Shown here piece by piece: positions 14,740-20,262 of a stretch of 38,855 bases of DNA. Both the position numbers and the translations under genes were made by a program. The stretch spans positions 1 to 38,855 of the forward strand of contig JAAZOZ010000203.1 in NCBI GenBank assembly GCA_012797505.1. Reading direction: 5' to 3'. Each line of letters starts with the position of its first letter. Position 1 is the stretch's first letter. Source of the stretch: Smithella sp. (GTDB lineage Bacteria > Desulfobacterota > Syntrophia > Syntrophales > Smithellaceae). The notes below the pieces were generated by a model, which worked only from the letters and a program-made list of their open reading frames with translations, had not been told where the DNA came from and did not search any database.

Positions 14740-15612
14740 CTACTCCACGGGTTTTTCAATCGTCACAAAAAGCTTCCCGTTTTTAAAAATACTGACGTTT
14801 CCCGAGGACTGGGAAATCACCATCGCCACCGCATTGGTCACGTTGGTGATGCCCGCCGCGGCGATATGGCGGCTGCCCAGCCCCGACGGAAAATCTTTGC
14901 TGTCCAGCGCCGCGCTCAAGTGCCGGCCTGCCGTAACAATCGCTCCGTTGGCCTTGATGATAAACGCGCCGTCAATGGCGGAAAGCTCCTTGATGGTTTC
15001 CTCCAGCTCCGGATTCAGAATATTGCGCTGCTCCTCGGAGTATCCTTTAAACGGGTTGATGATCATCTGCCGGGACAACTGCATGACTTTCTCATCGTCC
15101 CCCAGCACAAAGATCGTTCCGACCTTCCGGGTTTCCCGCCCCTGAGCGGCAAGCTCACAGGCGATGTTCAACGCCGCGTTGAAAACCTCCGGCTGGACGG
15201 AATCCACGACATCGCTGATGTCGTCGGATGTCAGAATTTCAAATTCGCGCCCCACGTCGATGAAAAAGATGCTGTCCGCATACCCGAATTTCGGCACGCC
15301 CGACAGGCAGACGATTCTGTCGCCTTTTTTGAACAGTCCGGAAACAATGCCTTTGGCGATCGCGATCTTGATTTTTCCGACGCGGGTCAGATTCACGTCG
15401 GGAAGTTCCAGTTTCTTCGCCGTCGGCAGCAGCTTCTCCGGCAATTCTTCGGATTCTCTCATGACGAAAACGAACCGAACCGATTTTCTCTCGTCTTCGG
15501 AAAGCTCGGCCAGTTCACCGCGAACATCTACGCACAGGAGAACACAGCCGGCTTTGACCTCTTTCGCCAGTTTAATGGCTGATTCGACCATCGTCTTGTT
15601 CACGGATTTCAT
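14740..15612 (-). CDS. Diadenylate cyclase, DacZ/CdaZ-type (N-terminal PK_C-like domain plus DisA_N/DAC domain)
   Basis: ELSAIDGAF (DGA) and GLGSRHIAA motifs, VISQSSG; start at 15612 (or 15618) after AGGGA. Confidence 0.88.
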
Positions 15613-15639
15613 ATCCATAATCCCTGGTTTTTTGAAGGT

Positions 15640-15668
15640 AGAATAATCATTCGGCGCCCGCCTGTCAA
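15640..15668 (-). promoter_or_regulatory. sigma70-type promoter for the DAC-clpB run
   Basis: Minus strand TTGACA-17 nt-TATTCT. Confidence 0.7.
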
Positions 15669-15713
15669 GACGGGGACGACCGCCCGGGGAAATATTTACT
15701 GGAAAATATTTGC

Positions 15714-15742
15714 TTGACCGCCAATGGACTCTTCGGTATTTT
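15714..15742 (+). promoter_or_regulatory. sigma70-type promoter for rpoH
   Basis: TTGACC-17 nt-TATTTT, upstream of RBS GAGGAGG (15764-15770). Confidence 0.65.
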
Positions 15743-15778
15743 AATAAACCATGTTTTTTTATCGAGGAGGCCAGCACG

Positions 15779-16999
15779 TTGAAGTTACCCATCTTCACCG
15801 GCACTCTGGACTTATACATCGCTGAGATCAATCGCTTCCCCATTTTAACCCCCGAGGAAGAGTTCAAGCTGGCCATGCGCCTGAAGAAAGACAACGATAT
15901 GGAAGCGGCGGAAAAACTCATCGTTTCCAACCTGCGGTTTGTCGTGAAGATCGCCCACGAATACCGCAGCTACGGCTTCAAACTGGCCGATCTCATTCAG
16001 GAAGGCAACATCGGACTGATTCATGCCGTCAAAAAATTCGACCCGGAAAAAGGCTACCGCCTGATTTCCTATGCGGTCTGGTGGATTCGCGCCTACATTC
16101 AGAACTACCTGATTAAATCCTGGAGCATCGTCAAGATTGGAACCACGCAGGCGCAGAGGAAACTTTTTTTCAAGTTGAACCAGGCCAGGAAACAGCTGGA
16201 AACCATCTCGAAGAAGAATCCCGAATTCAGCGAGATCGCCGATTCACTGGGCGTCAAGGGGTCCGAGGTCGCGGAAATGGATCTGCGGATGGGCGCGCGC
16301 GACCTGTCGCTCAATAAGCTTATCGGTGATGACGGCGAAACGTCCCATCTCGATTTCCTCACCCATGACGGCGACAACCAGGAAACATCCGTGATCAAGG
16401 ACTATGAACGAGAATTGGTTGAACACAATATCGGCGGCGCCTTGGCTACACTCAATGAACGGGAACGCTACATCATCCAGCACCGTATAATGTTGAATAA
16501 TACGATGGAAATAGAACGTATTGTTAACGAAGAGCAAAATAAAAAAGTAGAAAGCAATGATGAAAAAGAAAGAAGTAGATTCGATAGGATTAGAGCATAT
16601 AAACAACTCGTTGAAGAAGGGAAAGGCGATGATATTAACCAAATTAATAAAATTGCGCAGAAAGGCGAGACAGTTACATCCGCTAAAGAGGCTATACAAG
16701 CAGAAGAAGCAATCCTAAGGAAGGCAAAAGAAGACATTATCGAATTTAAAAGAGCTATAAGGAGTTCTGATAGAGAAGAAAATATTGCAAAAACCCTTCA
16801 GGAAATCGGCGACAGATACAACATCCCCCGTGAACTCGTCCGTCAGATCAGGGAACAGGCGCTTAAAGAAGATATTGCAAAAACCCTTCAGGAAATCGGC
16901 GACAAATACAACATCACCCGTGAACGCGCCCGCCAGATTGAGAAGCAGGCCCTCAAAAAAGTGCAGCTGGCCCTGCCGCACCTAAAAGAGGATCATTAA
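15779..16999 (+). CDS. rpoH: RNA polymerase sigma-32 (RpoH) with a ~100-aa insertion in region 4 and a duplicated region 4.2 HTH
   Basis: NLRFVVKIA, DLIQEGNIGL, YAVWWIRA, RpoH box QRKLFFKL; TTG start at 15779 after GAGGAGG. Confidence 0.92.
   Translation: MKLPIFTGTLDLYIAEINRFPILTPEEEFKLAMRLKKDNDMEAAEKLIVSNLRFVVKIAHEYRSYGFKLADLIQEGNIGLIHAVKKFDPEKGYRLISYAVWWIRAYIQNYLIKSWSIVKIGTTQAQRKLFFKLNQARKQLETISKKNPEFSEIADSLGVKGSEVAEMDLRMGARDLSLNKLIGDDGETSHLDFLTHDGDNQETSVIKDYERELVEHNIGGALATLNERERYIIQHRIMLNNTMEIERIVNEEQNKKVESNDEKERSRFDRIRAYKQLVEEGKGDDINQINKIAQKGETVTSAKEAIQAEEAILRKAKEDIIEFKRAIRSSDREENIAKTLQEIGDRYNIPRELVRQIREQALKEDIAKTLQEIGDKYNITRERARQIEKQALKKVQLALPHLKEDH
16776..16955 (+). repeat. 90-bp tandem duplication encoding the sigma region 4.2 HTH twice
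   Basis: 16776-16865 vs 16866-16955; 77/90 identical by hand alignment. Confidence 0.95.
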
Positions 17000-17610
17000 T
17001 CGGTCATTTGGGCCCACGGGGAATAAACGAGAAACCACGCGATTTTCACATACTCTCTGCCCACTTTTTTCCAGTCGGACGCCTTCAGTTCCCAGGCGTT
17101 TACCGGGGCCTTTTCGTAGGGCGTCGGCAAAAAACAATGGCCTTCGGATGAACCGAACAGTTTGCCGACCATGATGCGGATGCGCCGCATATGATACGGG
17201 GAGCTGACGAAGATCGCCGTCGTCTGACCGGTTTGCCGCATGATTCTTTTCGCCTCGATCAGCTCCAGGTGCGTGTCCTCATAATACGGCGAAGCCTCAT
17301 CGCCCTGATTCGCATTGAGGCGATCGGGGTCCTTCCGGACGAAAGCGGGCCGGAGCTTACCCCGGTCAACGGTGAAGATCTTTTGATAGGCGGGAATCAG
17401 GAGCGTGTCCGCCATCCCCCGGTTCATCAAATCCCTGGCGTAGCGATCCCGGTCGTGAAAAACGGGGCCCAGCAAAACCACGACGGCATCCGCCCGGGCG
17501 CAGCCGGTCGAATACGCCAGAAACCGGGGCGCATAAAACACCCCCGCCGCAAGGACGATCATCACCAGCAGCATCATTCCGATGCGCTTTTTAAAGGACC
17601 GCCGGGTCAT
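16996..17610 (-). CDS. YdcF/ElyC/SanA-like (DUF218) membrane-anchored protein
   Basis: N-terminal TM, ADAVVVLLG, VSSPYHMRR, REYVKI. Confidence 0.8.
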   Translation of the reverse strand: MTRRSFKKRIGMMLLVMIVLAAGVFYAPRFLAYSTGCARADAVVVLLGPVFHDRDRYARDLMNRGMADTLLIPAYQKIFTVDRGKLRPAFVRKDPDRLNANQGDEASPYYEDTHLELIEAKRIMRQTGQTTAIFVSSPYHMRRIRIMVGKLFGSSEGHCFLPTPYEKAPVNAWELKASDWKKVGREYVKIAWFLVYSPWAQMTD

Positions 17611-17637
17611 GGGCCGATGCCGTTCCTGTTTCCTTTT

Positions 17638-20262
17638 TCATAATTTGCTTTTCAGTTCGTTGAGTTTATTGAGCGCGGAAAGCGGCGTCATGGAAGAAAC
17701 ATCCAGCCGGCGAAGCTCTTCCAGAACGACGTCTTCGCTCGGGGCAAACAGATTCAACTGCGGGTTGGCCGGCTTTCGGACATTTTGGCCGCGGGCGATC
17801 CGCGGCATGCCGATTTCGTCGAATTCGCCCTTCTCCAGATTGCGCAGAATTTCCCTGGCCCGGGCAATGACGTCCGCCGGAACGCCGGCGATCCTCGCGA
17901 CTTCGATGCCGTAGCTGCGGCTCGTTCCCCCCTCCATGATCCTGCGCAGAAAAATGATTTTCTCCCCCCATTCCTTGACGGCAATGTTGTAATTTTTCGC
18001 GCCTGTCCTGGACGCGGCCAGATCGGTCAACTGGTGGTAGTGTGTGGCAAACAGCGTGCGCATGCCCTGCCCGGCGAAATCGTGAATATACTCGGCCACG
18101 GCCCAGGCGATGCTTAACCCGTCAAACGTCGAAGTTCCCCGACCCACCTCGTCCAGAATGACCAGGCTGCGGGGCGTCGCCTCCGTGAGAATCTGCGCCG
18201 TCTCCATCATTTCCACCATAAACGTGCTCTGGCCTTTGACCAGGCTGTCCGACGCGCCGATCCGCGTGAAGATTTTATCGACCACGCCGATGCGGGCGCG
18301 GGAAGCGGGAACAAAACTGCCCATTTGCGCGAGAAGCACGATCAGGGCCACCTGTCGGATATATGTGGACTTCCCGGCCATGTTGGGCCCGGTAATGACG
18401 AGCAGGCGGTTTTGCCGCAAATCCAGCAGCGTATCGTTGGGCACAAACCCTTCCTTTTTGAGGGCCGCTTCGACCACCGGATGGCGGCCGTCCTGAATGT
18501 CGATGACGTCTCCGTCATCGATTTCCGGCGAGACGTAGGCATGCTTTTCGGCCGCTTCCGCCAGCGCGCAGGTCGCATCGATCTCGGCCACGCGAAAAGC
18601 GTTGTGCTGAATTTCAGGAATATCCGGCAGCAGGCTTTCGCGAAGCGCGACAAACAGTTCATTTTCGCGCCCGCGTATTTTTTCTTCCGCGTGCAGCACC
18701 GTCTGTTCGAATTCCTTCAATTCCTGATTGATGTAGCGCTCCGCGTTGACCAGCGTCTGCTTGCGCACGTAGGAGTCCGGCACCAGCGCGGCGTTGGCTT
18801 TGGTCACTTCGATATAGTAGCCGAACACGCTGTTGTAGCCGATTTTGAGGGAATGGATGCCCGTGGCCTGCCGCTCTTTGACCTCCAGCGCGGCAATCCA
18901 TTTTTTGCCGTCGGCGCTGATGGAGCGCAGGCGATCCAGCTCTTCGTCAAAGCCCGCGGCGATAAATCCCCCGTCCTGCGTGCGGGCGGGAGGATCGGCG
19001 ACAATCGCGCGGGAAAGCAGCGAAACCGTCGCGGACATGTCCGTCATGTCTTTGCGCAAGGCGATCAGAGCGGGCGCGGTAAATTCTTCCAACCCGGATC
19101 GCAGGCCGGGTAAAACGGCAAGAGACGTTTTCAGCGCCACGAGGTCGCGCGGCGTCGCCGCCATGAGCGCAACGCGTCCGGCCAGCCTTTCCAAATCATA
19201 GACGCCGGATAGAATCTTGCGCAGGCCTTCCCGCGCCGCGTGGCTGTTTTTGATTTCCGCCACGGCCGCCAGCCGTCCGCGGATTCTTTCGGGCGACGTG
19301 AGCGGATAGGCCATCCACCAGCGCAGCCGTCTGGCCCCCATCGGCGTCAGGGTTTCATTGATCAGTGAAAAAAGAGAGCCGGCGCTTCTGCCGTCCTGAA
19401 GGGTTGCGAAGATTTCCAGGTTTCGGCGCGCGGCCTCGTTGAGCATCAGATAATTCCGGGGCGCATATTCCCGAATGGCGGAAATATGGCCGGCGCGAAC
19501 CTGCTGCGTGGCCTTCACATAGCGCAGAATCTCGGCGGCGGCGATTTTCGCCGCGGGAAGCTTGTGAAGGCCTGATTTTTCCAGCACCGAAGGCGCGAGC
19601 TCCCTCTCCAGAATTTCATCCGCCTGCCCGGGCTCAAAGCCGGCCGCGTCAATCGTATTGACGCAAACGGACGGCATCTGGGCCTCCAGCATTTTGACCA
19701 GCACCGGATCGGGAAAGGTCCCGGCGACCAGCAGTTCCCGAAAGACCAATCCGCCCGCGGCGGCGAGAAGCGCTTCGCGGCCGGGGAACTCGCCGATGTA
19801 AAATTCACCGGTGGAAAGATCCAGAAACGCCAGGCCCAGCGCATCGGGGCCGGCGGTCAGGCAGGCCAGATAATTGTTTTCTCCCGCTTTCAGGTTCTCC
19901 TCGTCCAGAACCAGCCCCGGCGTGATCACGCGGACAACCTCGCGCCGGACGATGCCTTTGGCGCTTTTCGGGTCCTCTACCTGTTCGCAGACGGCTACTT
20001 TGTAGCCCTTTTCCACGAGCCTTGTGATGTAGGCGGAAGCGGCGTGATAGGGAACCCCGCACAGCGGCACGGCGTCTTTACTGGACTTATTGCGGGAGGT
20101 GAGCGTGATTTCCAGAAGCGGCGCGGCCGCAAGCGCGTCTTCGAAAAACATCTCGTAGAAGTCGCCCATGCGGTAAAACAAAATGCAGTCCGGATATTTT
20201 TCCTTGATTTCGACGTACTGCTTCATCGCCGGGGTAAGATTGAACGTTGCGTCTAGCGCCAT
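17638..20262 (-). CDS. mutS: DNA mismatch repair protein MutS
   Basis: TPAMKQY, RMGDFYEMF, ITGPNMAGKSTY, DEVGRGTSTFDG, SYGIEVA. Confidence 0.98.
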   Translation of the reverse strand: MALDATFNLTPAMKQYVEIKEKYPDCILFYRMGDFYEMFFEDALAAAPLLEITLTSRNKSSKDAVPLCGVPYHAASAYITRLVEKGYKVAVCEQVEDPKSAKGIVRREVVRVITPGLVLDEENLKAGENNYLACLTAGPDALGLAFLDLSTGEFYIGEFPGREALLAAAGGLVFRELLVAGTFPDPVLVKMLEAQMPSVCVNTIDAAGFEPGQADEILERELAPSVLEKSGLHKLPAAKIAAAEILRYVKATQQVRAGHISAIREYAPRNYLMLNEAARRNLEIFATLQDGRSAGSLFSLINETLTPMGARRLRWWMAYPLTSPERIRGRLAAVAEIKNSHAAREGLRKILSGVYDLERLAGRVALMAATPRDLVALKTSLAVLPGLRSGLEEFTAPALIALRKDMTDMSATVSLLSRAIVADPPARTQDGGFIAAGFDEELDRLRSISADGKKWIAALEVKERQATGIHSLKIGYNSVFGYYIEVTKANAALVPDSYVRKQTLVNAERYINQELKEFEQTVLHAEEKIRGRENELFVALRESLLPDIPEIQHNAFRVAEIDATCALAEAAEKHAYVSPEIDDGDVIDIQDGRHPVVEAALKKEGFVPNDTLLDLRQNRLLVITGPNMAGKSTYIRQVALIVLLAQMGSFVPASRARIGVVDKIFTRIGASDSLVKGQSTFMVEMMETAQILTEATPRSLVILDEVGRGTSTFDGLSIAWAVAEYIHDFAGQGMRTLFATHYHQLTDLAASRTGAKNYNIAVKEWGEKIIFLRRIMEGGTSRSYGIEVARIAGVPADVIARAREILRNLEKGEFDEIGMPRIARGQNVRKPANPQLNLFAPSEDVVLEELRRLDVSSMTPLSALNKLNELKSKL

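Follow-up and report, generated by a model that had tools for sequence, protein, structure and literature searches.

An AT-rich in-frame insert and a duplicated helix-turn-helix within region 4 of the heat-shock sigma factor RpoH of a Smithella sp.

Region 4 of the sigma70-family factors is among the most compact and best-studied protein-DNA-protein interfaces, and activators, anti-sigma factors, and phage proteins act there. T4 AsiA and anti-sigma factors remodel sigma-4 at regions 4.1 and 4.2 and at the flap tip. RNA polymerase is also known to carry lineage-specific insertions, including the sigma70 non-conserved region (sigmaNCR) between regions 1.2 and 2.1 and insertions in the beta and beta' subunits, and the Rickettsia palindromic elements are selfish repeats lying in frame within protein-coding genes. 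Here, we describe an rpoH gene of an uncultured Smithella sp. of anaerobic digesters in which 100 residues separate the region 4.1 helix from the region 4.2 helix-turn-helix, and in which the latter is present twice. The gene lies on contig JAAZOZ010000203.1 of assembly GCA_012797505.1, a Smithella metagenome-assembled genome (MAG) referred to as G000 (2.86 Mb, 459 contigs, 98.8% complete); the whole contig (C21; 38,855 nucleotides) was analyzed and is called the window. The parts of the gene are as follows, in window coordinates.

15779..16999, + strand: rpoH coding sequence, TTG start, 406 codons plus stop, preceded by GAGGAG
15714..15742, + strand: promoter-like site TTGACC-17-TATTTT 5' of rpoH, a weak candidate from a consensus scan
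16457..16492, + strand: region 4.1 helix ERERYIIQHRIM, placed by alignment with E. coli sigma32 (8hkc_E); helix 227-237 in the AF2 model
16493..16504, + strand: LNNT, probable mutated remnant of the ancestral linker by alignment (ADDP in relatives, SDNP in a 383-residue lineage)
16505..16792, + strand: inserted segment, 96 codons, MEIERIV...SSDREENIAK, AT- and purine-rich, predicted helical module
16778..16867, + strand: copy A, 30-codon unit ENIAK TLQEIGDRYNIPRELVRQIREQALK, a diverged second region 4.2 helix-turn-helix
16868..16957, + strand: copy B, EDIAK TLQEIGDKYNITRERARQIEKQALK, the presumed working -35 reader
16958..16999, + strand: C-terminal tail KVQLALPHLKEDH and stop codon

Residues 239-338 (16493-16792) form an interval of 100 residues between ...RYIIQHRIM and TLQEIG. 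Among the best 120 RpoH homologues, this interval is 5 residues long in 94, 100 in 21, and 101 in 2, the other 3 being truncated so that it could not be read, and in each of 27 related genome loci that could be read at the 3' end, the linker has 5 residues, mostly ADDPL. LNNT is probably this linker in mutated form, because SDNP precedes the insert in the 383-residue protein P0023, and the inserted piece proper would then be of about 95 to 96 codons (16505-16792). Directly 3' of the insert, a 90-nt tandem repeat (16776-16865 and 16866-16955, 86% identical) doubles the region 4.2 helix-turn-helix, and the gene is thus 125 codons longer than those of its 281-residue relatives. The original prediction, made from the letters of the window, had placed a foreign domain of about 100 residues inside region 4 of RpoH. 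The 100-codon interval and its position in the loop between regions 4.1 and 4.2 were borne out; the insert itself probably lacks the four residues of LNNT, and the figure of 100 extra residues falls short, as the duplication had been overlooked.

The insert lies between two sets of functional contacts. In PMC10216364, where sigmaNCR is also mentioned, E. coli sigma32 is described as contacting the -35 element through L253, E265, R266, and R268 and the flap-tip helix through A221, L225, W244, L245, L278, and E283. Judged by these contacts, I237 and M238 of the Smithella protein align with the flap-tip residues W244 and L245, and the insert starts one residue later; it ends one residue before the Leu of TLQ, which matches the -35-contacting L253. 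Copy B aligns to E. coli sigma32 residues 238-282 and retains E, R, and R at the positions assigned to E265, R266, and R268 in that portion of PMC10216364, whereas copy A has Leu at the R266 position, a Pro before the recognition helix, and no hydrophobic equivalent of L278. From TLQEIG on, the copy B protein is identical to its orthologues, with 2 bases of about 95 differing from one of them and a nonsynonymous divergence (dN) of 0-0.018 against seven orthologues. We infer from these alignments that copy B, together with the tail and the region 4.1 helix, would form the working sigma-4.

Copies A and B differ by 8 nonsynonymous and 5 synonymous changes (dN 0.12; synonymous divergence [dS] 0.32; dN/dS ratio [omega] 0.38). 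Both are headed by E[ND]IAK, which is insert-like and is not the ancestral ADDPL, and because both copies begin in this way, the insertion must have preceded the duplication. The 383-residue lineage has the insert and lacks the duplication. Together, the repeat heads and this lineage show the apparent order of origin, with the duplication seemingly confined to the lineage of the window. The differences between the copies are unevenly spread: the first 39 nt contain 1 and the last 51 nt contain 11, a hint that the initial part underwent gene conversion or that the repeat is of mosaic origin.

The insert-bearing gene was recovered from public sequencing runs. Of the sampled words of 16250-17050, a fraction of 0.99 was found in 19 public runs from 18 studies; these are digester or activated-sludge metagenomes of 2015-16, all flagged as possible sources, and they may represent one campaign. 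Separately assembled Logan contigs of three of them (X1, X3, and X4) extend from 15600 or 16075 to 16811 and show 0 differences, and a 117-nt unitig (16785-16901) spans the joint between copies A and B at a depth similar to that of its flanks (21 versus 25, 274 versus 289, and 63 versus 62). A 33-nt unitig common to both copies has about twice the flank depth (44 versus 25 in X1), and the per-run contigs break only at the repeated word, as expected of a true tandem repeat. Joints skipping the insert were not found in the contigs of the runs examined (X1, X3, X4, and X20). X20, a 2025 run from another study, contains the copy A-copy B joint and both flanks; at a depth of about 4x, its contigs leave 16302-16733 uncovered and are uninformative on the insert there. 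The public contig L035 differs from the window at a single base within 15763-17134 (16966 G>T, which is found in X20 as well), and the three commonest G000-type protein forms are recorded on 97, 58, and 55 contigs. Since independent per-run contigs bridge all junctions at flank depth, the gene is not an assembly chimera. The insert-bearing rpoH is a real, population-wide allele, and a chimera, against which junction-spanning reads had been proposed as the test, is excluded for practical purposes.

The composition of the insert sets it apart from its surroundings. In 150-nt windows, GC content is 0.31-0.38 over 16450-16800 and 0.48-0.59 upstream. Over 16493-16777, GC content is 0.340 and that of third codon positions (GC3) is 0.25, against a GC3 of 0.73 both in the 5' part of rpoH and in mutS. 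Arginine is encoded by AGA or AGG in 8 of 9 cases (14% in the host), alanine by GCA or GCT in 7 of 8 (18%), and glutamine by CAA in 4 of 5 (19%), while ATA occurs 3 times in the insert and 0 times in the 5' part of the gene. Because these synonymous choices are far from those of the host, the anomaly is not a mere by-product of a Lys/Glu-rich peptide. Genome GC content is 0.55, and a value of 0.36 or less is found in 0.38% of 270-nt windows; the other low-GC islands that lie inside open frames (4 of the 10 looked at) are entire AT-rich genes and not inserts. The sense strand is purine rich (A 0.47, G 0.23), its three frames contain 0, 4, and 17 stops, and frame 0 stays open in only 3 of 20,000 mononucleotide shuffles of the 288-nt insert. 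The purine-rich sense strand, the open frame, and well-formed amphipathic predicted helices suggest a captured piece of foreign coding sequence that is read in its own frame. In these respects the original prediction was accurate: it had given about 34% GC, codons rare in the rest of the gene, an intact frame (15779..16999 is open), and a charged, helical segment, and we found 46% charged residues and helical models.

Three further observations concern the DNA in and around the insert. Two antisense open reading frames (ORFs) of 151 and 89 residues (16244-16737, minus strand) are open across it; these low-complexity frames are a consequence of the purine-rich sense strand and do not represent genes. 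Entire AT-rich ORFs (GC 0.30-0.49) occur on contigs C33, C379, C113, and C81 of the same MAG, which therefore carries foreign AT-rich DNA of a composition similar to that of the insert; by eye, we take one to be a PAS-repeat protein seemingly with a LuxR-type helix-turn-helix end and one to be methyltransferase-like. Immediately upstream, at 16391-16492 (residues 205-238), a cluster of substitutions is found in the G000 lineage alone (KDYERELVEHNIGG...ERERY versus the consensus KHEERSLVKRDIAG...ERESY). GC3 falls to 0.59 there and the residues aligned with E. coli flap-tip contacts are retained; the cluster may reflect compensatory changes or a recombination tract.

Searches for relatives of the insert gave no homologue. 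The best matches had E values of 0.036 in Pfam, below the cut-off, and 2.9 in PHROGs. Neither tblastn against phages and plasmids nor blastn against phages found a homologue, a profile of the two insert sequences had 0 matches at E <= 0.001 among 1.84 billion representative proteins, pattern scans of genome contigs and viral contigs yielded 430 and 407 pattern matches of which none was confirmed, and the ESM Atlas held no usable match. The claim of horizontal acquisition accordingly stands in part: the synonymous composition is foreign, no donor emerged from any search, and the case for acquisition is one of composition. An origin as an old copy of region 4 was rejected, since hhalign against 39 RpoH proteins lacking the insert gave a probability of 0.3%, its only match being 6 residues (IRAY.Q) to region 2; Pfam Sigma70_r4 was likewise not reported for the insert. 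A repeated element resembling a Rickettsia palindromic element or a miniature inverted-repeat transposable element was also rejected, with 1 DNA match and 1 protein-level match in the genome, and terminal inverted repeats were absent from the insert ends. Rfam gave no family over 15500-17700 except one chance-level row, and promoter-like or terminator-like sites were not found inside the insert.

In the AF2 model of the full-length protein, confidence is highest in the insert (pLDDT 77-92 over residues 251-320). Modeled alone, it has helices at 3-19, 29-41, 48-54, and 64-100 with a mean pLDDT of 73.7. It carries a net charge of -1 in G000 and of +3 in the 383-residue lineage, so that neither an acidic DNA mimic nor a basic DNA binder is supported. 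A VIA structure search with the insert fold returned generic helical chains at best (Z 5.6), and a Foldseek search of the PDB had 0 matches at E <= 0.001; histidine-kinase DHp hairpins ranked first, with E > 1. A homodimer prediction returned no answer (score 0.00) and speaks neither way.

The protein sequence of the insert has been kept, as had been proposed. It is invariant across the 19 G000-type proteins compared at full length, in which the one common polymorphism is A337V, in the head of copy A, and it is about 80% identical in a second lineage. Between G000 and P0023, identity is 182/200 in the sigma body, 26/38 in the 38 residues before the insert, 75/94 in the insert, with no indel, and 38/43 in the C terminus. 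Against seven same-genus orthologues, the dS of G000 rpoH is 1.0-2.2 (saturated), and omega is 0.03-0.06 in the 5' 238 codons. Taken together, these comparisons point to purifying selection on the insert, at about twice the rate of change of the body, provided that the insert dates back to the separation of these two lineages.

A search with the insert region matched 24 proteins, all of them sigma factors. They comprise G000-type proteins of 406 or 429 residues; two forms of 376 residues, on 1 and 3 contigs, which have the insert without the duplication and may be collapsed assemblies; and two proteins of 383 residues, P0023 and P0024, with an insert about 80% identical and no duplication. A search of 115 other family genomes, including 46 from the same genus, did not detect the insert. 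When the insert columns are left out of the tree, its bearers are not grouped together: P0023 and P0024 cluster with the insert-less P0029, and the approximately unbiased (AU) test rejects a single clade of the four insert bearers (p 0.007). P0029 and P0023 are identical at 199/200 residues before the insert and at 31/39 after it. P0025, also without the insert, has the first approximately 180 residues and the C-terminal tail of G000 in common. We favor homologous recombination as the means by which the insert allele would pass among co-resident lineages of Smithella. Digesters, in which Smithella are key syntrophs, seem to harbor near-identical backbones both with and without the insert, and these would provide natural controls. 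In P0011, an insert-bearing protein of 406 residues, 11 of 12 substitutions fall in residues 5-90 and the remainder is of G000 type; it has either a recombinant 5' end or a chimeric contig as its source. A metagenome scan for DNA of the 383-residue lineage was dominated by the conserved QIEKQALK pattern: of 80 loci kept, 72 match only query residues 102-143, and among the 8 that were translated, only L035, of G000 type, has the insert.

On balance, we consider it probable that a foreign fragment was captured in the loop between regions 4.1 and 4.2 and kept by selection as a looped-out helical module, with copy B reading the -35 element. About 288 nt of AT- and purine-rich DNA, likely a foreign coding fragment, would have been captured between the 4.1 helix and the 4.2 helix-turn-helix, and a later 90-nt tandem duplication, in the lineage of the window only, would have copied the last 5 insert codons with the helix-turn-helix. 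Copy B, the C-terminal tail, and the 4.1 helix would then form the sigma-4 that binds the beta-flap tip and the -35 element, while the insert and the degenerating copy A (125 residues) would loop out as an accessory helical module, retained by purifying selection and passed between co-resident Smithella lineages via homologous recombination. The looping out and the action of selection are what we infer from the features above. The module might modulate or gate the engagement of sigma-4 or might supply a docking surface; these are the most plausible roles because it would lie within a few residues of the flap-tip and DNA contacts, and a regulatory role is our guess. The new surface for interaction, proteolysis, or sensing suggested in the original prediction, and a shielding of region 4 from AsiA-like proteins, are likewise speculative.

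Several points weigh against this history. The insert is absent from the 115 other family genomes and is therefore dispensable for the genus, and the long RpoH is known here as DNA and predicted protein. Selection was read from protein identity, and a recent transfer of the insert could fit a weaker constraint. The AU test drew on 33 of the 120 proteins, and its group was chosen once the first tree had been seen. P0025 and P0029, the near-twins lacking the insert, could stem from chimeric contigs of the metagenomes. The models differ in the N-terminal third of the insert, which is a beta-hairpin in the full-length protein and a disordered loop in the insert alone; the underlying alignment is 2 to 5 sequences deep, so that the high pLDDT may reflect an idealized helical sequence; and with a pLDDT below 50 in sigma-3 and region 4.1, the model is silent on how the module packs against sigma-4.

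Among the other explanations, the most serious is that the insertion and duplication were accidents in a permissive loop that persist because precise deletion is rare, with selection acting only against disruption of the frame. We regard such a neutral passenger as possible, though doubtful. It would agree with the lack of a homologue and of a recognizable fold, with the failure to find the insert in 115 other family genomes and its absence from near-identical backbones, with a rate of change about twice that of the sigma body (20% versus 9% amino acid difference), and with the raised omega of copy A (0.38). However, at a backbone dS of 1.0-2.2, drift predicts far less than 80% identity as well as indels, of which none is found in 94 residues; the insert is unchanged in 19 full-length G000-type proteins, and its site between flap-tip- and DNA-contacting residues is not obviously permissive. 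It is unlikely, in our estimate, that the insert, with copy A as a decoy, is a built-in gate, a helical module between the flap-tip and -35 contacts that holds sigma-4 inactive or altered until released by a signal. Were this so, the signal might be, for example, heat-induced unfolding, chaperone binding, or proteolysis, and an anti-sigma or thermosensor function would have been fused into the sigma chain and spread between Smithella populations by recombination.

An inactivated gene, with sigma-4 destroyed, rpoH decaying, and heat-shock control taken over by another system, would account for the loss of the -35 contact residue from copy A and for the extra G000-lineage substitutions just before the insert (26/38 identical versus 182/200 in the body); a scan of the genome for E. 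coli-type sigma32 promoters gave 0 sites, as did the control, which is a weak point since the consensus was a strict one. We hold this to be very improbable in view of the entirely open frame, the omega of 0.03-0.06 over the 5' 238 codons, the dN of 0 in copy B, the lack of a second RpoH-type gene in the 98.8%-complete MAG, and an allele that is abundant and stable over 19 runs. Still less credence is given to a self-removing element, an intein or the remnant of a group I or II intron, that would leave a mature sigma factor of normal length. The in-frame, compositionally foreign insertion into a conserved, essential-type gene is intein-like, but inteins are recognized by a first-residue C, S, or T, a terminal His-Asn followed by C, S, or T, and a Hint fold, and the mini-inteins known so far exceed 96-100 residues. 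The first residues of the insert are LNNTM (or MEIE) and its last are IAK, with T next in the chain; a nucleophile at the first position and His-Asn at the end are both lacking. Neither a Hint nor an intein domain is reported by Pfam, the fold is predicted to be helical, and the length of 96-100 residues is below that of the known mini-inteins. Rfam finds no intron or other RNA family. An artefact of assembly or binning, in which AT-rich DNA was chimerically joined into rpoH or a repeat was falsely duplicated, has an equally negligible chance of being correct. The source MAG is fragmented (459 contigs), the exact 33-nt word in the repeat can mislead de Bruijn assemblers, and the 376-residue forms without the duplication occur on 1 and 3 contigs. 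Against this, contigs assembled separately from three runs show the two insert junctions and the copy joint unchanged and at flank depth, the copy joint recurs in the 2025 run of a different study, and L035 matches 15763-17134 at all but one base; every word of the 376-residue form is also present in the 406-residue form, which makes the former the likelier artefact, by repeat collapse. The capture and retention of a foreign helical segment is the history that we prefer.

The identification of the gene as rpoH, made in the original prediction, was confirmed. The protein matches the NCBIfam rpoH equivalog TIGR02392 in two stretches at 329.8 bits (cut-off, 323.1), and Pfam PF00140, PF04542, PF04539, and PF04545, for regions 1.2, 2, 3, and 4, are found in order above their gathering cut-offs, region 4 being split into two matched stretches. 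Among PDB entries, it matches E. coli sigma32 best (8hkc_E; phmmer E 9e-57), and VIA comparison of the model with this structure gave a Z of 11.8 and a root mean square deviation of 3.6 over 110 residues. The RpoH box, a QRKLFFNLR-like stretch between regions 2.4 and 3, is present, TTQAQRKLFFKLNQARK pairing with TTKAQRKLFFNLRKTKQ of E. coli in the phmmer alignment, and database records name the relatives as RpoH of Smithella or Smithellaceae. The likeliest start is TTG 15779, which lies nine bases after GAGGAG. The open frame extends over 15710..16999 (+), and an alternative gene-caller start at TTG 15710 would give 429 residues; proteins of 406 and of 429 residues are both present in public databases. 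The scan that gave the promoter-like site found 3 such sites in the scanned region, where 1.9 were expected.

Only one RpoH-type match was found in the genome, the other two matches being an RpoD-like frame (32% identity) and a 28-residue fragment. The upstream neighbor is a DAC / DacZ_P gene in all 19 same-genus loci, and a DUF218 gene lies downstream in 8 of the 19; in the window, mutS follows. The gene is the single, orthologous, and syntenic rpoH of a Smithella-like MAG. Three genomes of the genus (G008, G016, and G019) have two rpoH paralogues each, the second copy being 76-78% identical to the query. From 17135 onward, inside the DUF218 gene, L035 leaves register with or diverges from the window, possibly through an indel or rearrangement.

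Full-text literature searches returned no description of an insertion inside sigma region 4 or inside RpoH. That a sigma32 tolerates 125 extra residues between its flap-tip and -35 helices, along with a second helix-turn-helix in tandem, shows the plasticity of this interface, and the insert offers a natural test case for the capture and keeping of an orphan protein segment. T4 AsiA and the anti-sigma factors act at the sigma-4 interface into which the insert falls, and they show that its occupation changes promoter use; those are separate proteins, whereas the extra mass of this RpoH is predicted to be part of the sigma chain. Like the Rickettsia palindromic elements, the insert is a foreign-looking, in-frame segment of a conserved gene, read as a helical surface segment, but it is single copy, has no terminal inverted repeats, and is two to three times longer.

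The insert may resemble the lineage-specific insertions of RNA polymerase in being an extra module, probably folding by itself, in a loop between conserved regions that remain intact; its own helices are predicted with confidence. In those other cases, the extra sequence is fixed across large clades and remote from the interface of sigma-4 with the flap and the -35 element. In contrast, the Smithella insert lies inside sigma-4, is conserved in two narrow lineages with a patchy distribution, and is polymorphic on near-identical backbones; it is also compositionally foreign and has no homologue that we could find. The closest relatives remain E. coli sigma32 and the RpoH family, with which the protein shares regions 1.2 to 4, the TIGR02392 score, the QRKLFF stretch, the E, R, and R of copy B for the -35 element, and an orthologous locus. 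It departs from them in having 100 instead of 5 to 6 residues between the 4.1 helix and the helix-turn-helix, a second, diverged helix-turn-helix, and 406 instead of 281-284 residues. Judged by its sequence, the gene stays within the RpoH family, and the compact region 4 is the one family trait that appears to have changed.

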